Shown: positions 40,351-50,230, counted from the first letter of the stretch. The stretch is DNA of 64,000 nt from Escherichia coli (GCF_003790525.1 NZ_CP033636.1); one strand, 5' to 3'. Program-made: numbers and translations. The notes: generated from the sequence alone by a model not told the origin.

Positions 40351-41508
40351 TTATTTAGAACCGGCGCTCCAGCGAAATCCCCAGCCAAATGCCCGGTCCA
40401 TTTCGTCCTGGCCTTTGAAGTACTGGTTAATTCGCTCGACTTTAATTGCGCCGTTTTCGTTTACGAGTCTGGCAATGGCGCACAATGTGCGACGGTTTTC
40501 ACCTTCGGTCAGGCGGGTCTCAATGGGCGGTTGATCCGGCACATGAATGGTGACCACACCATCAGTCTTGTCCCAGCTGGGAACACCTTCATAAATAAAG
40601 GCGTAAATCAGCACTTCGCGGATATGCTTCCATTCACGTCCATTGATATGCAGCCACTCGCCGTCTGATACATCACCCGTACGGTCATCGCCCTTGAGCT
40701 GAACATACGGTTCATCCCGATAATTACCGAATGCATTACCGAGCGCCTGAATGACCGATTTATACCCGTCCTGAAGCTCAACAAAGGCCCCCAGATCCAG
40801 GTCGATTCCTTTGGAGCCGAACATGCCTGCAAAGCCTGATTTGCCGCTGCCCCGGTGCCAGTTCAGGTTGATCCGGATTTCACCGAAGTTATCCCGTTTG
40901 GTCAGGCTGATTGCAGGCTTCTCTTTTGTCAGCGATACCTTGCTCAGGCTGATTTTTGTCTCAACTGGCGGAGGGGTTACAACCGGAGGAGTCGGGGCTG
41001 CGGGAGCCGGTTCGTCGGCAATATTTACGCCGAAATGCTCTGCCAGCGGTTTAAGTCCACCGTTGAACCCCTGCGCAACGAAGCGGAATTTCCAGTCATT
41101 ATTACGACGGTAAAATTCACCCAGAATTAAGGCTGCTTCCTGACGGCCGCTCAGTTCGACACTGCCGCTAACCAGGCCGGTAGCCCCTTGCTCCACGTCG
41201 ATGGAAAGATTACGAAGACCGGACACCGTCTGCCCACCGTCACAGGTCACGGTGAACGCAATTTTCTGGACATCAGGTTTCAGCCGGTTGAGCGCGACAG
41301 TAAAGGTTGAGTACTGGCCTTCACTGACCAGGCTGACGGTACCATCATCGTTACGTGGCTGACCATAAAACACCATGTCCGCATCACCCTGCACCTTCCC
41401 GTCGGCATACAGGCGAAACGCCGAAGCATCCACCTGGCCGCCCGAGGTGATCCGGACCCGCAACTCCTGGGCTGGAACGGGGGCATTGCCCCCCGGCGTC
41501 AGGTTCAT
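40351..41508 (-). CDS. terA: tellurium resistance protein TerA (tandem TerD-like domains)
   Basis: 385-aa translation with two TerD-like halves; operon position. Confidence 0.85.
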   Translation of the reverse strand: MNLTPGGNAPVPAQELRVRITSGGQVDASAFRLYADGKVQGDADMVFYGQPRNDDGTVSLVSEGQYSTFTVALNRLKPDVQKIAFTVTCDGGQTVSGLRNLSIDVEQGATGLVSGSVELSGRQEAALILGEFYRRNNDWKFRFVAQGFNGGLKPLAEHFGVNIADEPAPAAPTPPVVTPPPVETKISLSKVSLTKEKPAISLTKRDNFGEIRINLNWHRGSGKSGFAGMFGSKGIDLDLGAFVELQDGYKSVIQALGNAFGNYRDEPYVQLKGDDRTGDVSDGEWLHINGREWKHIREVLIYAFIYEGVPSWDKTDGVVTIHVPDQPPIETRLTEGENRRTLCAIARLVNENGAIKVERINQYFKGQDEMDRAFGWGFRWSAGSK

Positions 41509-42089
41509 TAGCGAATAACCGCTGAAACGATATCGGAGTGCATATCGTCAATTGTGCGGCCGCGACAGGCATGGCCAAGGGCGGTAAAGTCCCAGTTGCC
41601 GTTATTACGGCGCAGCGAAGAAATAACGATCCCGGTATGTGAGCCCTGCTCAGTCAGCTTGTAGCGAGCCAGCTCTTTGCCGGTTTGATCGACAACGCGG
41701 CAGAACGCGTTTTCGACGTCATTGAACGACTGACCACGGAAGCTGTTTACCGTAAACGCCAGGTATTCAACGTTTGCAGGCAGTCGGGAGAGGTTGACCT
41801 TAATCACCTCATCGTCACCGTCACCCTCACCGGTCAGGTTATCGCCACTGTGCACAACAGCGCCGCAGGTGGATTCCAGTTTGCGGAACCAGATGGTGTC
41901 AATTGTTTTACCGGTGCTGTCCATTAATACGCAGCCAGCATCGAGATCGATTGAGTCGTTGCCTCCAAACAATCCTCCAAGAAGACCTTTTTTCTTAACC
42001 GGATCCCAACCGAGACCGAAATGAAGCTGGCTTAATGCAGATGATTCTTTGCTGAGTGATACCGTCTGGTTCTTAACTAATGAAACCAT
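41508..42089 (-). CDS. terZ: tellurium resistance protein TerZ (TerD family)
   Basis: 193-aa translation MVSLVKNQTVSLSKESSALSQLHFGLGWDP...; first gene of the operon. Confidence 0.85.
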   Translation of the reverse strand: MVSLVKNQTVSLSKESSALSQLHFGLGWDPVKKKGLLGGLFGGNDSIDLDAGCVLMDSTGKTIDTIWFRKLESTCGAVVHSGDNLTGEGDGDDEVIKVNLSRLPANVEYLAFTVNSFRGQSFNDVENAFCRVVDQTGKELARYKLTEQGSHTGIVISSLRRNNGNWDFTALGHACRGRTIDDMHSDIVSAVIR

Positions 42090-42411
42090 GTTTTATTCCT
42101 TAAAATGGTAATGACCGAGACAATCAAAGGTATATTTAGTAACTGACGAAGAAAATCATATCATGATGAAGTTCTCTGACAAGGGAAATTTTGGTAGTTT
42201 TCTTCAAAAACACAAAAATAAATCCTTTTCATGGTGTTCATTTTTCTATTTTTAATTTAAATATCAATACGTTATAAGGTACTAAAAAAACACTGACGCA
42301 CTCCATAACCACTGAAGTTATTAATCATATTATGATTGACATGTAGCGTAGACACTCATAGACTCACTTCTCAATCATAAATTTGCATGGCGTTCCGGAT
42401 AATTAAAAAAA
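42090..42411. promoter_or_regulatory. AT-rich divergent promoter region between terZ and the ter-linked operon
   Basis: 322-bp AT-rich intergenic region between divergently oriented gene sets; promoters not mapped. Confidence 0.5.
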
Positions 42412-43470
42412 ATGAACAAGAAAATTTGGTTTATGGAAGGTTTGTCCTCCCAGCGAGATATTATTCAGGGGGTAAAATCATTTGCACAAAAAAATAATTT
42501 TGCTATTACCGTATTTGCCTCCCACCGTAACGAAAGACATGAAATTCTTTCCGTTGCCGATTATTCTTTGACTGAACCTGAAGATCCTCAAAAACGTCTT
42601 CAGTTTATTCAGGAAACCATTCAGACCTACGGCATCCACCATATTCATACTGGCCGTAACAGCCAGTGGTTTGAAGAACACCGTTCAGCCATTGAATCGA
42701 CCGGAGCCACCCTTACTACCGGTGCAACAGGCGTCGACTGGTTAACTCTGGCTGACGAAAAAGTTACTTTTGCTCAGTTTATGGAGCAAAACGGGCTCCC
42801 GGTCGTACCGTCCTGGCGGGTGAATACGCTGGCAGAATTAAAGACGCACCTCGCGGCCCCGCCGTTCTCGGACAGCCCGGTATGCGTGAAGCCGGTGACG
42901 GGTATCTATGGCATGGGATTCTGGCGCTTTGATGACAGTGCTTCGCCCATGGCCGTCTTTAATCATCCCGAACATCGTCTGGTCAGTCCGCAACAGTATA
43001 TTGCAGCAGCATCGGCTTCTGAGTCGTTTAAACCCCTTGTTTTGATGCCGTACCTGCCAGGCCCGGAATTTTCCGTCGATATCCTCGCGGATAAGGGCGA
43101 AATACTCGCAGCCGTGGGACGCCGTAAGGAAGGGGCTATCCAGTATCTGGTAAACGAAGGAAGCGCCTGGGAACTGGCTTGTGACTGCGCCCGGGTTATG
43201 AAGGCCGACGGGCTGGTGAATGTTCAGACGCGAAACGATGTGAATGGCAACCCGGTGCTGCTTGAAACCAACATGCGTCCGTCAGGCGGGGTGGGTTATA
43301 CCCTTCACAGCGGGGTGAACCTTCCCGGGTTGTTTGCTGCCTTTAAGCTCGGTCTGATGTCTGAAGATGCGGTGATCCAGAGCGCCAGAAATACCTTTTC
43401 TCCGGTTGCAGTGAGATCCATCACAGATGTCATCGTTTACCCGGAATCACTCTCTAACCATCTGAATTAA
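42412..43470 (+). CDS. ATP-grasp family enzyme (ter-linked)
   Basis: 352-aa ORF; ATP-grasp assignment from sequence pattern and from the published ter gene-neighbourhood analysis as recalled; not verified by search. Confidence 0.55.
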   Translation: MNKKIWFMEGLSSQRDIIQGVKSFAQKNNFAITVFASHRNERHEILSVADYSLTEPEDPQKRLQFIQETIQTYGIHHIHTGRNSQWFEEHRSAIESTGATLTTGATGVDWLTLADEKVTFAQFMEQNGLPVVPSWRVNTLAELKTHLAAPPFSDSPVCVKPVTGIYGMGFWRFDDSASPMAVFNHPEHRLVSPQQYIAAASASESFKPLVLMPYLPGPEFSVDILADKGEILAAVGRRKEGAIQYLVNEGSAWELACDCARVMKADGLVNVQTRNDVNGNPVLLETNMRPSGGVGYTLHSGVNLPGLFAAFKLGLMSEDAVIQSARNTFSPVAVRSITDVIVYPESLSNHLN

Positions 43471-43479
43471 GGCGTGTTT

Positions 43480-44622
43480 ATGTCTGATACCCTCGAAGAT
43501 ATGATTTATCGCCGTACCCTCTCATGCGGTACGATACAGGTAACCCGCGACCAGGGTGATGTTTCGCTCGATGACCTGTTTGATATCGCTGAAAGACGTA
43601 ACCCGAAACGCGCCTTTCTGTTTGTCAGCAAAGTACTCGGCAGGCACATTCCCGTGCCACCCTCAGTCATGCGGCAGGCCTACAGACAGCTTGCCAGCCA
43701 GTTCCCCGCAACGCTGACAGGGCCCGTACTTTTTATCGGTATGGCTGAAACCGCCGTTGGGCTAGGGGCCGGTGTGTTTGATGAAGTGCGCCACCAGCAT
43801 CGTGAATCTGTCTATCTGACCTCTACCCGTCACCCGGTTGATGGCACGTTACTTTGCGAGTTCAAGGAAGAACACAGCCACGCCACCGATCATCTGATCT
43901 ATCTGCCAGATGATGAAGAGAAAAGACGTCGTGTTACCAACGCACGAACGCTGGTTTTGATTGATGACGAGGCAACCACCGGTAATACCTTTATTAACCT
44001 GCTTTCTGCCCTGCGTAATACCGGCAAGCTTCAACATATTGAACAGGTTATCGCCGTTACGCTTACCGACTGGAGTAGCAACGCCCTGTCGGAGCGCACA
44101 TCCTTGCCCGTCACTTCGGTTTCGCTTGTAAGCGGTCAGTGGGGATGGACCCCATTACCTGATGCACCTGTCCCGGACATGCCGAAAGTCAACGTAACTT
44201 CACGCGGAGAATGGGACATCCTGGGAAAACAGTCCTGGGGTCGACTGGGGATGCTCGCACCTGCGGCCGATCTCGGCCATGAGGTCTCCGTCCGCAAGGG
44301 GGAACGTATTCTGGTTCTCGGGACCGGGGAATTCGTCTGGGAGCCGTTCCTGCTTGCTGAACGGCTCGAAGCTGCCGGAGCACAGGCACTTTATGGTTCG
44401 ACCACCCGCTCCCCTATCGCCGTTGGTTATGCCATTGAGTCCGCCATTTCCTTTACGGATAACTACGGGCTGGGCATCCCCAATTTTGTCTATAACGTCG
44501 CCCACCAGCAGTTTGACCGTATTCTTGTGTGTACTGAGACACCCGCAGAAAGTATTGACACGCAGCTTCTTAAAGCCCTGGCTGAGGTTGCGCCCGTCGT
44601 GGAGATTGTTACCTATGAATAA
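43480..44622 (+). CDS. phosphoribosyltransferase (PRTase)-domain protein (ter-linked)
   Basis: PRPP-binding-like motif LVLIDDEATTGNTF; start placed at the first ATG (the ORF track begins 6 nt earlier at GTG). Confidence 0.6.
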   Translation: MSDTLEDMIYRRTLSCGTIQVTRDQGDVSLDDLFDIAERRNPKRAFLFVSKVLGRHIPVPPSVMRQAYRQLASQFPATLTGPVLFIGMAETAVGLGAGVFDEVRHQHRESVYLTSTRHPVDGTLLCEFKEEHSHATDHLIYLPDDEEKRRRVTNARTLVLIDDEATTGNTFINLLSALRNTGKLQHIEQVIAVTLTDWSSNALSERTSLPVTSVSLVSGQWGWTPLPDAPVPDMPKVNVTSRGEWDILGKQSWGRLGMLAPAADLGHEVSVRKGERILVLGTGEFVWEPFLLAERLEAAGAQALYGSTTRSPIAVGYAIESAISFTDNYGLGIPNFVYNVAHQQFDRILVCTETPAESIDTQLLKALAEVAPVVEIVTYE

Positions 44623-45388
44623 ACCCGTTGTTCTGAGCGACCTTGACGACACGCTCTTTCAGACCCGTCGTAAAATGGTGGACGAGCTGGCCCTGGAGCC
44701 ATTCCGTACCGGTGCCGTTGATCGCACCCTGAATCCACGAAGCTTTATGACGGAAGAACAGTCCATGTTGGTGGACTGGCTCCTGGAGCAGGCTGAACTC
44801 ATACCTGTTACCGCCCGGGGAACTGAAGAAATCAGCCGCGTCCGGATCCCTTTCCACTCCTGGGCAATCACCACGCACGGGGCCGTCATTCTCACGCCTG
44901 AAGGCAAACCCGACGAGGAGTGGAAGGCCCATATGCTTGGCCAGCTGGCTCCCTACCAGGAAAAGCTGACATCGATGCAGCGTCTGATCACTGAAATGAT
45001 GGACGCAAAAGGGATCAATGCCTGGGCAAGGCTGAACTTCGAATACGGTGAAACGGCGGTTTATATGGTGATGAAGCACCGCGACAGCACCCGCCTTGAC
45101 GAGCTCAATGCCATTGCAGATGAGATAGAAACGGTGTTTCCGACCGAGGGCTTCTACATCCACCGCAACAGTAATAACGTGGCCTGGCTTCCCACCCCGG
45201 TTGAGAAAGGGCTGGCCGTCAGATGGCTGCTTGAAAAACTTCGGGCTGAACGCGGAGTCTTCCCCGTAATTGGCCTGGGCGACAGCCTGAGCGATCATCG
45301 TTTTATGAAACTGTGCAGCTGGTTTGGCATCCCGCGTCAGAGTCAGTTTGCAGATGCCATTTCACAGCGAATTTTTGGAGAAAATTAA
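44615..45388 (+). CDS. HAD-superfamily hydrolase (ter-linked)
   Basis: N-terminal motif VVLSDLDDTLF (DxDxT); ATG overlaps the preceding stop (atgaataa). Confidence 0.65.
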   Translation: MNKPVVLSDLDDTLFQTRRKMVDELALEPFRTGAVDRTLNPRSFMTEEQSMLVDWLLEQAELIPVTARGTEEISRVRIPFHSWAITTHGAVILTPEGKPDEEWKAHMLGQLAPYQEKLTSMQRLITEMMDAKGINAWARLNFEYGETAVYMVMKHRDSTRLDELNAIADEIETVFPTEGFYIHRNSNNVAWLPTPVEKGLAVRWLLEKLRAERGVFPVIGLGDSLSDHRFMKLCSWFGIPRQSQFADAISQRIFGEN

Positions 45389-45389
45389 A

Positions 45390-46469
45390 ATGCAGCCACA
45401 TGACACATTTACCGGCTCATACCAGCCCGGTGACGTGGAATTTCTGCTAAAGCCGGTTGTCATTGAGATGACGCCGGTTGAGCAAAAAGAAGAGCTGATT
45501 CAGTCAGGGAAGAAACATTATTCGGACATGCTCAGTCAGGAGCCAGCGCCAACACAATGGCATCTTGATTTGTTTCACCGGGCGCTGGATCGGGGCGCAG
45601 AGAGACTTGCAAAAGAAGTCACACAGCTCGCTATTGCTCTGGCCAAACGCTTTGGTGATGAGCCCATTGTACTGGCCAGTCTTGTCAGGGCTGGCGTGCC
45701 GCTCGGCGTTATGCTGCACCAGGCCCTGCGTGACATGGGGAAAACCTCATGGCATTACGGTATCAGCATTATCCGGGATCGTGGAATTGACGGTGCAGCC
45801 CTCGACGTCATTGAAGAGCGGCATGGTACCAGCGGTATTGTCTTTGTTGACGGATGGACAGGTAAAGGCGCAATTACCGGAGAGCTTGTACGCGCACTGA
45901 AAGATCGCCCGGGCTATCCTGAGCAGCCGCGACTGGTTGTCCTGGCCGATCCCTGTGGCTGCTCCTGGCTTGCAGCCAGTGATGATGACTGGCTCATTCC
46001 TTTTGGCATCATGGGTGCGCCGGTGTCAGGCCTGATCTCCCGGTCAGTGTGGTCCTCTGAAGGATTACACGGGTGCATGGTTTGCGAGCATCTCAGTGAA
46101 TTCGAATGCAGCCGGATGCTTGTCGATACCGTCGCTCATTTCCGTAAGAAGTTAACCCCGTCATCCCTCGCTCCCCTGAGCTGGAATACGGAGTCAGCCC
46201 GGATCTTATGGCAGACAAGTCGCGACGTTATCGCGTTCCTGGCCGATGAATTTAAAGTGGACAGCGTCAATCGTATAAAACCCGGTATTGCTGAAGCAAC
46301 CCGGGCTGTATTACGTCGGGTACCGGACCATGTATTTGTGCGTTCTATTGACGACCCGGACGTTGCCTTGCTTGTAGGGCTTGCTCGTGAAAAGGGAATA
46401 GTTGTTACAGAAATGGGGGGAACCCTCGGCCAGTATCGGGCTGTAACCATTATCAAGAAGGTACTTTGA
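45390..46469 (+). CDS. conserved ter-linked protein of unknown function (possible degenerate PRTase-like fold)
   Basis: 359-aa ORF from the ATG at 45390; segment IVFVDGWTGKGAITG loosely resembles a PRTase signature. Confidence 0.4.
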   Translation: MQPHDTFTGSYQPGDVEFLLKPVVIEMTPVEQKEELIQSGKKHYSDMLSQEPAPTQWHLDLFHRALDRGAERLAKEVTQLAIALAKRFGDEPIVLASLVRAGVPLGVMLHQALRDMGKTSWHYGISIIRDRGIDGAALDVIEERHGTSGIVFVDGWTGKGAITGELVRALKDRPGYPEQPRLVVLADPCGCSWLAASDDDWLIPFGIMGAPVSGLISRSVWSSEGLHGCMVCEHLSEFECSRMLVDTVAHFRKKLTPSSLAPLSWNTESARILWQTSRDVIAFLADEFKVDSVNRIKPGIAEATRAVLRRVPDHVFVRSIDDPDVALLVGLAREKGIVVTEMGGTLGQYRAVTIIKKVL

Positions 46470-47425
46470 TGAAAAATCGTCTTTCTCCCTGGAATCTGGG
46501 AGCCACGCTATACATGCCTGCAACACGGGAAGATATTGCTGATGCCGTCCTGCACGGGAAAATCCCGGGTTTGCGCTCTCTGGTGATTTGCCTGGAGGAT
46601 GCTGTCAGTGAAGCAGACATCCCCGTCGCCCTCAAAAATCTGGAGCACCTGCTGCACGAGCTCAGTAACAGCATGCATAGCCTGGGTAAAAATGACTGGC
46701 CTCTGGTGTTCATTCGCCCCCGGCATGCCGAAATGGGCAGATGGTTAAAAGCGCATTATGATCTTTCCGCTGTCGACGGGTTTGTGTTGCCGAAATTTAC
46801 CCTCAGTTCGTTAGCTGAATGGTGGGATATCATGGGCGGGACTCACCTGTGCATGATGCCAACGCTGGAAACAGAAGACGTCTTTGACGTGGTTCAGATG
46901 CGGGAGCTGGCCACCCGTCTGGTGGAACATCCCTGCCACGACCGCATTATTGCGCTTCGAATCGGCGGCAACGATCTTATGAACGTTGTGTCGCTTCGCC
47001 GTCCCCGGGACCTGACGCTGTATGACAGCCCGATGGGCTACGTCATCAAAATGCTCGTTTCGGTCTTCGGCCCGCGTGATTTTGCCCTGACCGCGCCCGT
47101 ATGTGAGCATATTGACGATCATGCCGTAATGGCCAGAGAGCTGGCTCTTGATATGGCACATGGGCTTGTTGGGAAAACGGCCATTCACCCGGGTCAGATA
47201 GAGGTCATTCAAAACGCGCTGATGGTCACTCAGGGTGAGCATTCTGACGCTCTGCGGATCCTGAACTCTACCCAGGCCGTGTTTAAGTCGCAGGGAGCAA
47301 TGTGTGAACCCGCCACACATCGCCGCTGGGCGGCTGGCATTCTGGACAGAGCTCGTTTTTATGGGTTACAGAACGAGCAAAGCGCTGATGGAATCAGATT
47401 ACTTACCGTGACCCAGCATCATTAA
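46469..47425 (+). CDS. CitE/HpcH-like aldolase or citrate-lyase beta-like TIM-barrel protein (ter-linked)
   Basis: Pattern ...LYMPATR...LRSLVICLEDAV resembles CitE/HpcH; ATG overlaps the preceding stop codon. Confidence 0.55.
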   Translation: MKNRLSPWNLGATLYMPATREDIADAVLHGKIPGLRSLVICLEDAVSEADIPVALKNLEHLLHELSNSMHSLGKNDWPLVFIRPRHAEMGRWLKAHYDLSAVDGFVLPKFTLSSLAEWWDIMGGTHLCMMPTLETEDVFDVVQMRELATRLVEHPCHDRIIALRIGGNDLMNVVSLRRPRDLTLYDSPMGYVIKMLVSVFGPRDFALTAPVCEHIDDHAVMARELALDMAHGLVGKTAIHPGQIEVIQNALMVTQGEHSDALRILNSTQAVFKSQGAMCEPATHRRWAAGILDRARFYGLQNEQSADGIRLLTVTQHH

Positions 47426-47435
47426 GGAAATCATA

Positions 47436-48644
47436 ATGGGGTTCAGATTCAGAAAGTCGATCAACATTATTCCTGGTGTTCGCCTCAACCTGAGTAACGG
47501 TGCACCGAGCCTGAGTGTCGGGCCGAGAGGTGCTTCCGTTTCTTTTGGAAGCCGGGGGACCTATGCCAATCTGGGCTTGCCCGGTACCGGGCTGAGTTAC
47601 CGTACCCGGCTTGATCGGGCCGCGCGTTCCGGAGGTGGGAACCGGACGGCTACCGACCCGGGGCTCAGACAGGCGCTTGAGGAGGAAGCCGCTGATCTCA
47701 TGTCAGCGGTGACCGCAATCCGTAATATTCACGAGCTGACGCCGGATCCTAAAACAGGCATCAGCTGGGCAGAGCTGGAAGCAGTATACCTGCATAACAG
47801 AACGTCGCCTTTTCAGGTTCCGGCACCGGTGCGTCCAGAAAAGCCAGACTATCTTGCATTGCCGGAAAAGCCTGCCGAGAGCGAAGGCATTAGTTTTCTG
47901 GGTAAATGGTTTGAATCGGAATCAGCTAAAGCTGAGCGCCACGCCGAAAATCTTCGCCGGTGGCAGCAGGAGCTGATTGATGTGGAGCGTGAGAATACCC
48001 TTCGACAGCACCGGTACCAGCAACAACGGACGGCCTGGGCCGAACAGTATGCAAACTGGAAGTTTGAGGCTGAAGAACATGAAAAACGGCTCGCCACGGC
48101 TCAGGCAGATGCCCGGCAGCAGTTCCGGACAGACGCCGCGTTTTTCGAATCATACCTGGCGGGTGTGCTGGCAGAAACTGAATGGCCGCGTGAAACGCTT
48201 GTTGCATTTGAAGTAAAGCCGGAGCTATCAGCAGTCCTGCTGGATGTTGATTTAGCTGAGATTGAAGATTTCCCTGATAAGATTTACGGCGTTAATGCCC
48301 GGGGCACGGAGCTGACGGAAAAAGCCATGACGCAAAAAGCCGTACGCGAAAACTATGCCCGCCACGTCCATGGCTGCTTGTTCCGCCTGGTCGGTATCGT
48401 TTTACATACGCTACCGTTCGACAACGTGATTGTGTCAGGCTTTACGCAACGGGTCAGTAAGCGGACCGGCTATCTGGAGGATGAGTATATCCTGTCCTGC
48501 AAATGCAGTCGCAGCCAGATGTCGTCAGTAAATTTTGCAGGCTTAGAACACATTGATCCGGTTGAAGCGTTAGGCGATCACCCGGTTATTCGAAAGATGA
48601 GCAGTACCTTCATTTTTCAGCCTATTGAACCACTAACCCTTTAA
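47436..48644 (+). CDS. DUF4236-domain protein (ter-linked)
   Basis: N-terminus MGFRFRKSINIIPGVRLNLSNGAPSLSVGPRGASVSFG is characteristic of DUF4236 as recalled. Confidence 0.5.
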   Translation: MGFRFRKSINIIPGVRLNLSNGAPSLSVGPRGASVSFGSRGTYANLGLPGTGLSYRTRLDRAARSGGGNRTATDPGLRQALEEEAADLMSAVTAIRNIHELTPDPKTGISWAELEAVYLHNRTSPFQVPAPVRPEKPDYLALPEKPAESEGISFLGKWFESESAKAERHAENLRRWQQELIDVERENTLRQHRYQQQRTAWAEQYANWKFEAEEHEKRLATAQADARQQFRTDAAFFESYLAGVLAETEWPRETLVAFEVKPELSAVLLDVDLAEIEDFPDKIYGVNARGTELTEKAMTQKAVRENYARHVHGCLFRLVGIVLHTLPFDNVIVSGFTQRVSKRTGYLEDEYILSCKCSRSQMSSVNFAGLEHIDPVEALGDHPVIRKMSSTFIFQPIEPLTL

Positions 48645-48661
48645 GCAGGCTAAATCTTACG

Positions 48662-49129
48662 ATGCAATTAAATACCAGACAGGCCCGGATTTTTAAGCTT
48701 GCCAACTTACTGGGCACCGGCAAGCCCGTTTCCGCTGCCGACATTATAACCAGTCTGGAATGCTCAGAGCCGACATTAACCCGGGCACTCAAAGAGCTAC
48801 GCGAGTCATATTCTGCGGAGATCAAATACAGCAAGGCAGGTCATTCCTACCATCTCGTTAATCCGGGCCAGCTGGATAAAAAGACCCTTCGCCGGATGAA
48901 TGAAGCGCTCGCACAGAATGCTGAACTGAAAACCGGTGAGTCCACAGGGAAGGTCGTACTCGATAAGGATAAAAAAACAGCCGTGTCATTATCGCTACGC
49001 ATGCGGATTTTAAGAAAAATTGACCGTCTGGCTGCGCTGAGTGGCTCGACCCGAAGTGAAGCGGTAGAGAAGCTGGCTCTGCACTCCGTTGATGAACTGA
49101 TAAAAGAATACAGCGCTAAAAAGTCCTGA
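48662..49129 (+). CDS. terW: putative transcriptional regulator TerW
   Basis: 155-aa HTH-like protein at the end of the ter-linked operon; length and position fit TerW; recall-based. Confidence 0.55.
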   Translation: MQLNTRQARIFKLANLLGTGKPVSAADIITSLECSEPTLTRALKELRESYSAEIKYSKAGHSYHLVNPGQLDKKTLRRMNEALAQNAELKTGESTGKVVLDKDKKTAVSLSLRMRILRKIDRLAALSGSTRSEAVEKLALHSVDELIKEYSAKKS

Positions 49130-49143
49130 CGCTAAATCTCAGA

Positions 49144-49168
49144 CCGGGGTGAAAACCCCGGTTTTGTC
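49144..49168 (+). terminator. intrinsic terminator downstream of terW
   Basis: CCGGGG-TGAAAA-CCCCGG hairpin followed by TTTTGTC, 15 nt after the terW stop. Confidence 0.7.
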
Positions 49169-49591
49169 ATATTTCACCTCTGTATCTGCGTGACGGAGTT
49201 TTGATCTATTCTCCTCCCGCAATGTCAGCAGCGCCTTTCTGCCTACAAAACCTGGTGTCTTGACATCCTCTTGTGCTACACATCAATCTTTGGGCGATTT
49301 ACACTCCATTCATGCAGATCTGTGATGTATGATGATTTTCATACATAAGAAAGTTTATTTTTGCCGGAGTTTTTTTCAGAAATTTATATTCCAGTACGGT
49401 CTGAATTTTTTTCTCTGATAAGAGGCCATTCACATGTCGGTAATTCAATGGTGGTTAACTTATTTCTTTAATGCCGCTTCTGAGTATTTAATCTCCACCC
49501 GACAGATGTCGTGCCGTTTTATCAAATCTACAAACTCTGGCCTCTTCCTGAAACTACTCTCCTCTTCCGATCTCTTAAGAAGGAATTACAT

Positions 49592-50230
49592 TTGAGACGC
49601 TTACCCGTATATCTGCTACTCGACACGTCCGGCTCTATGCACGGAGAGCCTATCGAAGCGGTTAAGAATGGCGTTCAGACGCTGCTTACCACGCTGAAAC
49701 AGGATCCGTATGCACTCGAAACGGCTTACGTGTCAGTGATCACCTTTGATTCTTCAGCCCGACAGGCAGTCCCCCTGACAGACCTCCTGAGTTTCCAGAT
49801 GCCAGCACTAACAGCCAGCGGCACCACCTCTCTTGGCGAAGCGCTTTCCCTCACGGCCAGCTCCATTGCCAAAGAAGTACAGAAAACGACGGCTGACACT
49901 AAAGGTGACTGGCGTCCCCTTGTATTCCTGATGACGGATGGAAGTCCGAATGATGACTGGCGTAAAGGCCTGAATGACTTTAAAGCGGCCAGAACCGGCG
50001 TTGTTGTGGCATGTGCAGCCGGGCATGATGCCGATACCAGCGTCCTCAAAGAAATCACTGAAATCGTGGTTCAGCTCGATACAGCTGACAGTTCGACGAT
50101 TAAAGCTTTCTTTAAATGGGTCAGTGCGAGCATTTCGGTAGGCAGTCAGAAAGTGGAGTCCAGCAAAAAAGAAGTGATCGGTCTTGAAGACCTGCCACCG
50201 CCGCCGCCAGAAGTAAACGTGGTCTTATAA
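49592..50230 (+). CDS. terY: vWA-domain protein, TerY-like paralog 1 (TTG start inferred)
   Basis: MIDAS motif LLLDTSGSM; start set at TTG (RRLPVYLLLDTSGSM) to match the 213-aa paralog; the ORF track starts 27 codons earlier at ATG. Confidence 0.6.
   Translation: MRRLPVYLLLDTSGSMHGEPIEAVKNGVQTLLTTLKQDPYALETAYVSVITFDSSARQAVPLTDLLSFQMPALTASGTTSLGEALSLTASSIAKEVQKTTADTKGDWRPLVFLMTDGSPNDDWRKGLNDFKAARTGVVVACAAGHDADTSVLKEITEIVVQLDTADSSTIKAFFKWVSASISVGSQKVESSKKEVIGLEDLPPPPPEVNVVL

Follow-up and report, generated by a model that had tools for sequence, protein, structure and literature searches.

We investigated an operon at positions 42412-48644 of a 64,000-nucleotide stretch of Escherichia coli DNA (GCF_003790525.1, NZ_CP033636.1; the whole stretch is called the window here). 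As open reading frame (ORF) calls and coordinates show, six tightly packed ORFs fill this interval on the plus strand, with terZ divergent on one side and terW on the 3' side. The locus is the conserved "biosynthetic module" that accompanies the ter genes for resistance to tellurite, phage and colicins; here it resides on an IncHI2 multidrug-resistance plasmid. As the best overall explanation, we consider it fairly probable that its five-enzyme unit makes a nucleoside-like molecule that acts with the Ter proteins. This interpretation restates the comparative-genomics prediction of a nucleoside-like product by Anantharaman, Iyer and Aravind in 2012 (Mol Biosyst 8:3142; as relayed in PMC8115787, PMC11994780 and PMC7824862), and the finding is already known, not new. 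The genes are arranged as follows.

41508-42089, minus strand: terZ, the divergent neighbour.
42412-43470, plus strand: ORF1, ATP-grasp ligase of a Ter-specific family, 352 amino acids (aa) (Pfam ATPgrasp_Ter, E 2.7e-37).
43480-44622, plus strand: ORF2, phosphoribosyltransferase (PRTase) of the PRTase_2 family with a C-terminal TRSP domain, 380 aa (PRTase_2, E 1.5e-63; TRSP, E 5e-23).
44615-45388, plus strand: ORF3, HAD-superfamily phosphatase, HAD-IIB-like, 257 aa (motifs and weak profile matches).
45390-46469, plus strand: ORF4, PRTase-fold protein (Pfam StiP) with a Pelota/L7Ae-like domain, 359 aa (StiP, E 4.9e-89; PELOTA_1, E 4.6e-25).
46469-47425, plus strand: ORF5, CitE/HpcH-superfamily TIM-barrel C-C lyase, 318 aa (C-C_Bond_Lyase, E 9e-114).
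47436-48644, plus strand: ORF6, DUF4236 protein, 402 aa (DUF4236 at the N-terminus only).
48662-49129, plus strand: terW, the gene that ends the unit, encoding a small DNA-binding regulator (RefSeq annotation of identical plasmids).

An earlier note, made from the sequence alone, had described a packed operon divergent from terZ and ending at terW, and the coordinates and RefSeq gene boundaries agree with that description. Its ATP-grasp, PRTase, HAD, CitE and DUF4236 assignments were all upheld by profile hidden Markov model searches, that of the HAD protein through motifs together with weak matches. The loop of ORF2 that binds phosphoribosyl pyrophosphate (PRPP), VLIDDEATTGNT, is canonical, with a hydrophobic run and two acidic residues followed by TTGxT; within it (LVLIDDEATTGNT), D162, D163, E164, T167, G168 and T170 are invariant in five homologues, down to 27% identity. 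Single-sequence searches with ORF1, ORF2 and ORF4 gave no PDB match; ORF2 has no solved relative by sequence, and a profile of its homologues also lacked a PDB match. In ORF3, motifs I (DxD), II (T), III (K) and IV (GDxxxD) are all invariant in 11 homologues, HAD-StiP fusions included. The best match of ORF3 in NCBIfam is TIGR01486 (E 3.6e-9; 36.3 bits against a curated cut-off of 164.75), it scores 24.1 bits with the HAD-IIB model TIGR01484 (cut-off 41.8), and its Pfam matches are weak (E 0.009 or worse). Judged from its sequence, ORF3 is a divergent HAD member.

RefSeq names ORF4 'cysteine protease StiP', which is also its Pfam name. If the name were apt, ORF4 would serve in stationary-phase or stress proteolysis and the cluster would be a stress-morphology system, not a biosynthetic one. 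Acinetobacter baylyi StiP was reported as a protease on which normal morphology and tellurite resistance depend (Reichert 2013, Can J Microbiol 59:726, as summarized in PMC11994780); it belongs to the same Pfam family as ORF4, and its mutant is described in that summary as tellurite-sensitive. Within ORF4 itself, H227, which lies next to C229, is 95% conserved. However, C229 is the best-conserved cysteine and is present in only about 70% of 105 family members, the other cysteines reach 20-51%, and an alignment of 93 sequences contains no invariant or 90%-conserved cysteine. A confident structure model of ORF4 combines a PRTase alpha/beta fold with an L7Ae/Pelota fold and does not have a protease fold. 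The invariant residues, among them S97, R100, G102, P104, G155, W156, K159 and D200, occupy PRTase-type loops (SLxRAGxPxG, DGWTxKG), indicating that ORF4 has a real PRTase fold, and fusions of StiP with HAD, PRTase_2, ATP-grasp and C-C lyase enzymes recur. The A. baylyi protease assignment is thus unsupported for ORF4 by fold or residue conservation, and we regard a protease role for ORF4 as very improbable.

The PRPP loop of ORF4 reads F-V-D154-G155-W-T-G-K159-G, in which, across 93 sequences, G155, W156 and K159 do not vary and D154 reaches a conservation of at least 90%. The earlier note had called this a degenerate PRTase-like motif; the PRTase fold is real, but the motif, being non-canonical yet invariant in the family, is not decaying. 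In comparison with the type I nucleobase PRTases (HGPRT, PyrR, UPRT), ORF2 and ORF4 have no sequence-level match to any solved PRTase, ORF4 has D-G in place of the acidic pair, and the two proteins carry the extra domains TRSP (ORF2) and Pelota-like (ORF4). The best structural matches of ORF4 are CriT/CrpP, from the Haemophilus influenzae type b capsule polymerase Bcs3, and a Thermobacillus composti ribofuranosyltransferase (PDB 8a0c, 7shg). In the CriT/CrpP system, it has been demonstrated biochemically that a PRTase-fold enzyme moves ribose-5-phosphate from PRPP and that a HAD phosphatase then takes off the 5-phosphate (PMC10299916).

This precedent raises the alternative that the module ribosylates a macromolecule or another non-nucleobase acceptor (RNA, protein, or a glycan or envelope component), that the HAD enzyme then dephosphorylates the product, and that the Pelota/L7Ae-like domain recognizes an RNA target. 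The pairing of ribofuranosyltransferases such as CriT with a HAD phosphatase (PMC10299916) speaks for it, as do ter phenotypes of Klebsiella pneumoniae that implicate the cell envelope (PMC9933665). On the other hand, sequence identity stands at 9-11%, small-molecule tailoring is a better fit for an ATP-grasp ligase and a CitE-like lyase, and the locus has no glycan-assembly or export genes, so that we consider macromolecule ribosylation unlikely. In one form of the idea, the PRTase-fold pair and the HAD enzyme would carry out CriT/CrpP-like, PRPP-dependent ribosylation of RNA (bound by L7Ae/Pelota) or of an envelope component, and the signal read by TerD/TerB/TerC, blocking phage and colicin, would be the ribosylated product or target; we give this form a slim chance. 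If it is true, Ter would count among immune systems of the signalling type, and its chemistry would be new.

The two remaining enzymes also belong to well-defined superfamilies. A profile of four ORF1 homologues matches the ATP-grasp structure 2pn1 (E 3e-9) and biotin carboxylases, and E285, N287 and R289 of the Mg/ATP-binding ExN motif (LLETNMRPSGG) are invariant. For ORF5, the homologue profile matches structures of the CitE/RipC/CLYBL/malyl-CoA lyase/HpcH aldolase superfamily, including RipC (3qll, E 2.6e-11 over 291 positions) as well as CitE, CLYBL and malyl-CoA lyase (1u5h, 5vxc, 4l9y). The motifs LEDAV, PK, GGNDL and GKTAIHPxQ are invariant in ORF5, as are residues E43, D44, R83, R85, K109, E134, D169, K236, H240 and Q243. 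With scores of 34.3 bits against a cut-off of 375 for RipC and 20.2 against 443 for citE, far under the NCBIfam equivalog cut-offs, ORF5 is not an orthologue of either; it differs from CitE and RipC in belonging to a separate Ter-specific family, PF15617.

These scores also bear on whether the operon holds ordinary nucleotide-salvage or central-metabolism enzymes that merely neighbour ter. Each of the PRTase, HAD, ATP-grasp and CitE-like families does include housekeeping enzymes, and there are weak NCBIfam matches to CPSase-like, MPGP and citE/RipC models. However, all NCBIfam scores fall far under the equivalog cut-offs (47 vs 218 bits for the CPSase-like model, in addition to RipC), the best matches are to Ter-specific Pfam families, and the genes accompany TerD genes, whether on plasmids, in islands or on metagenome contigs. 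The block is also missing from most E. coli, being present in 956 of 5,426 complete genomes (~18%), the chromosomal ter island of O157:H7 included. A housekeeping role is hardly credible on this evidence.

We judged conservation of the neighbourhood from nine independent loci and the literature. The gene order beside TerD-family genes recurs on the Providencia stuartii chromosome, a Shewanella contig and three unrelated metagenome contigs, indicating that the arrangement is not due to chance, and the enzyme genes almost always adjoin TerD-family genes. In a fusion survey of the 150 best 50%-identity cluster representatives of ORF4, 31 were longer fusion proteins, with HAD joined to StiP in 7 and PRTase_2/TRSP joined to StiP in about 20; the 150 also include one fusion of ATP-grasp, PRTase_2/TRSP and StiP (1,055 aa) and one of StiP with the C-C lyase. 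Natural gene fusions thereby link enzymes 1-5. Between the plasmid and O157 copies, all seven genes keep exactly the same length, and ratios of nonsynonymous to synonymous substitution (dN/dS) of 0.02-0.24 reveal purifying selection. RNA sequencing in Pectobacterium versatile treats the five orthologous genes as a single operon, co-regulated with the divergent terZABCDE (PMC7843439). Conserved order, fusions, purifying selection and the Pectobacterium transcriptome are four independent lines of support for the idea that the genes work together. The conserved core is the five enzyme genes plus terW, and in the plasmid lineage ORF6 sits between the lyase gene and terW.

The 1,055-aa fusion (ATP-grasp+PRTase_2+TRSP+StiP+Pelota) lies on a metagenome contig (L007, 527-9795) together with a TerD gene, a C-C lyase gene and a HAD gene. 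A TIR_2/Sel1 protein gene comes directly after the HAD gene, then one for a trypsin-like protease; such surroundings are of conflict or defence type.

All five components of the Ter biosynthetic module of Anantharaman and colleagues are present here, in the five-enzyme configuration and beside terZABCDE, and the predicted product is the same. The enzyme set is identical to theirs; the difference is that the lineage of IncHI2, E. coli, Klebsiella and Shewanella adds DUF4236 between the lyase gene and terW, whereas Providencia has none. We take the locus, in its R478-like IncHI2 and E. coli O157 forms, to be the type example of that module. A TerD-family/TerB/TerC neighbourhood surrounds the genes here and also in Providencia, Shewanella, O157 and the three metagenome contigs. 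The current model of the same authors holds that a nucleoside derivative made by the PRTase and HAD enzymes is a signal sensed by TerB/TerD (PMC7824862). terZ-F alone are enough for tellurite resistance (PMC8115787), and papers up to 2025 still term the enzyme cluster "putative" (PMC8115787, PMC11994780). The earlier note had pointed to a comparative-genomics prediction with an uncharacterized product, in agreement with this literature (PMC8115787, PMC11994780, PMC7824862).

For the nucleoside-like product that we favour, the chemistry of the families suggests the following route. A PRTase would join ribose-5-phosphate from PRPP to a base-like acceptor, and the HAD enzyme would remove the 5'-phosphate to leave a riboside, by analogy with CriT/CrpP. 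The ATP-grasp enzyme would add an amide-linked group through an acyl-phosphate, while the C-C lyase would make or trim a carboxylate or acyl side chain. The product, a small nucleoside-like molecule, would probably serve the TerD/TerB/TerC membrane complex as a ligand or signal, not act as a direct tellurite detoxifier.

Several points weigh against this proposal. ORF3 scores under the curated HAD cut-offs, and ORF4 lacks the canonical vicinal acidic pair (D-G, not D-D/E). Structurally, ORF4 comes closest to O-ribofuranosyltransferases whose acceptors are polymers, and its predicted Pelota/L7Ae domain hints at RNA or another macromolecular partner, not a free metabolite. The A. baylyi homologue of ORF4 is, in the account of Reichert 2013 given in PMC11994780, a protease. 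The order of the pathway is drawn from family chemistry, and the operon structure described below from motif scans and gene spacing; terW, for its part, is under separate control in Pectobacterium (PMC7843439). Our literature search, thin on subscription journals, found no product, activity or anti-phage mechanism for the module. A PADLOC 2.0 search yielded no significant defence-system match, with marginal hits of ORF2 to PRTase_III-A (E 8.5e-4, 16.7 bits) and of TerW to a WYL model (E 4e-5).

The earlier note had counted the DUF4236 protein among the enzymes, a placement that does not hold, as the gene is missing in Providencia and no enzyme fold can be recognized. The ORF6 model (mean confidence score pLDDT 87.6) consists of an N-terminal beta-meander, a 70-residue helix and a C-terminal alpha/beta domain, and fold searches with it found no recognizable enzyme fold and no informative structural neighbour. 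In Providencia, the lyase gene and terW are neighbours, 258 nt apart; the DUF4236 gene is present in the ter loci of Shewanella, Klebsiella and E. coli. In Psychromonas ingrahamii (locus L004, 7052-10977), a gene for a DUF4236 protein of 41% identity is placed between three genes of the TerD family, and its surroundings contain no biosynthetic enzyme genes, which suggests that the functional partner of the DUF4236 protein is TerD, not the enzyme pathway. The DUF4236 gene is an optional, lineage-specific accessory outside the core enzyme set, and in our scheme its product would be tied to TerD proteins and not to the chemistry.

More distant DUF4236 homologues occur outside Ter loci, twice beside genes for an SNase nuclease and His-Xaa-Ser radical-SAM proteins. 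Full-length distant homologues are found at two loci (L010, 6001-7362; L011, 6001-7389), in the second of which a phage-type integrase adjoins, and an SNase gene flanks the Shewanella ter locus (L006, 16445-16921). The DUF4236 N-terminal domain (window 47436-47640) matches nine PHROG phage families of unknown function, best phrog_38135 (E 2.6e-38); elsewhere in the locus, PHROGs gave no match. Some UniProt entries for truncated identical copies of ORF6 are labelled 'restriction endonuclease', for which the fold searches give no support. We also considered ORF6 as a recent insertion and rejected this for want of any compositional sign, its GC content and its GC content at third codon positions (GC3) being equal to those of its neighbours.

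The genes are closely spaced throughout. The earlier note had listed three overlapping junctions, of which two stand: ORF2 and ORF3 overlap by 8 nt (ATGAATAA, 44615-44622), and ORF4 and ORF5 by 1 nt in TGATG (46467-46471), a StiP/lyase overlap that is retained in Providencia and Shewanella. The third, between ORF5 and ORF6 (47425/47436), is instead a 10-nt spacer containing the Shine-Dalgarno-like AAGGAA. ORF3 and ORF4 nearly abut in TAAAATG with a 1-nt gap, and 9 nt separate ORF1 from ORF2 and 17 nt ORF6 from terW. The candidate regulatory features of the unit are listed below.

42182-42155, minus strand: terZ-side promoter-like site (motif scan).
42154-42168, no strand assigned: palindrome-like site AATCATATCATGATG, candidate TerW operator, overlapping the -10 of the terZ-side promoter-like site.
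42323-42337, no strand assigned: perfect 7-1-7 palindrome AATCATA-T-TATGATT, candidate TerW operator, abutting the -35 TTGACA of the operon promoter-like site.
42336-42364, plus strand: best sigma-70-like promoter match, TTGACA-17-TAGACT (10/12 of the consensus), 48 nt upstream of the ORF1 ATG.
49141-49174, plus strand: strong terminator-like hairpin (hairpin 49141-49164) with a 10-bp stem, 6 G-C pairs, a GAAA loop and a T-rich tail, 12 nt past the terW stop.

Since a promoter-like site lies upstream of ORF1 and a terminator-like hairpin and non-coding DNA follow terW, the most probable extent of the unit is ORF1 through terW. The non-coding DNA that precedes terY amounts to about 460 bp. An Rfam search of 41900-49700 (E up to 0.1) found no RNA elements.

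terW has been described as a regulator of ter genes (PMC7843439, PMC4633105), and TerW sites have been placed in the intergenic region between terZ and the operon (PMC7843439). The 15-nt palindrome AATCATATYATGATT has two copies in the 322-bp divergent intergenic region, against 0.18 matches expected across the whole window. Providencia keeps both sites, with a 15-mer identical to the 42154-42168 site at the same position, and Shewanella conserves one of the two; at the 42323 site, AATCA-N5-TGATT followed by GAC is retained in Providencia and Shewanella despite diverged flanks. The palindromes represent known biology: a palindrome protected by TerW had been described in E. coli and Pectobacterium (Valkovicova 2011, as presented in PMC7843439), and those found here agree with it. 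These conserved palindromes at both divergent promoters are probably TerW operators, through which TerW would probably repress both operons.

The Shewanella TerW homologue has a weak RHH_1 match. In TerW itself, the N-terminus (residues 3-100) gives weak ArsR, WYL-model and MafR matches and appears to be a winged-helix domain, and the C-terminus (residues 117-135) gives a marginal aCcr1 match (E 0.007) and appears to contain a ribbon-helix-helix-like segment. A further perfect 8-6-8 palindrome, ATGTATGA-TGATTT-TCATACAT, lies at 49325-49346 in the 460-bp gap between terW and terY1, and it has GATTTTC in common with the reverse complement of the 42154 site. From its sequence and position, it may be the counterpart of a site in Pectobacterium, the third one reported for TerW, which lies upstream of terY1.

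Positions 1-25000 of the window (its first 25 kb) form a mosaic multidrug-resistance region with high-GC segments that carries ISKpn19, cmlA5, floR, tet(A) and others, which identifies the source of the window as an IncHI2 resistance plasmid. Also present are IS26, with a copy at ~30000, and, at ~31360-32983, a HipA-family toxin/HTH antitoxin pair. The gene boundaries equal the RefSeq annotation of the identical plasmid pXD35001, which is typed as IncHI2A. Across 42000-49200 (7.2 kb), 672 plasmid records match at 99% identity or more, and among the matches listed all 15 plasmids are 100% identical over this interval, with hosts including E. coli, E. fergusonii, Salmonella and Klebsiella oxytoca. 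The O157:H7 ter-island copy is 97.7% identical to the plasmid block. In the O157:H7 island (locus L012, 16391-21212), terZABCDE, the six-gene operon and terW are all intact, and IS66-family elements stand in place of the downstream terY/terX/PP2C/kinase genes; because they are replaced there, these downstream genes are dispensable for keeping the enzyme operon.

The ter locus has been linked to tellurite, phage and colicin resistance, and in Klebsiella also to gut fitness and virulence. The ter locus is very common, and exactly this operon occurs in O157:H7 and on more than 1,200 sequenced plasmids that also bear drug-resistance genes. The window offers no new handle on the question of the product, as R478 or O157 have long been amenable to the same experiments. 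The identity of the product would explain how Ter works, and it might reveal a new signalling nucleoside.

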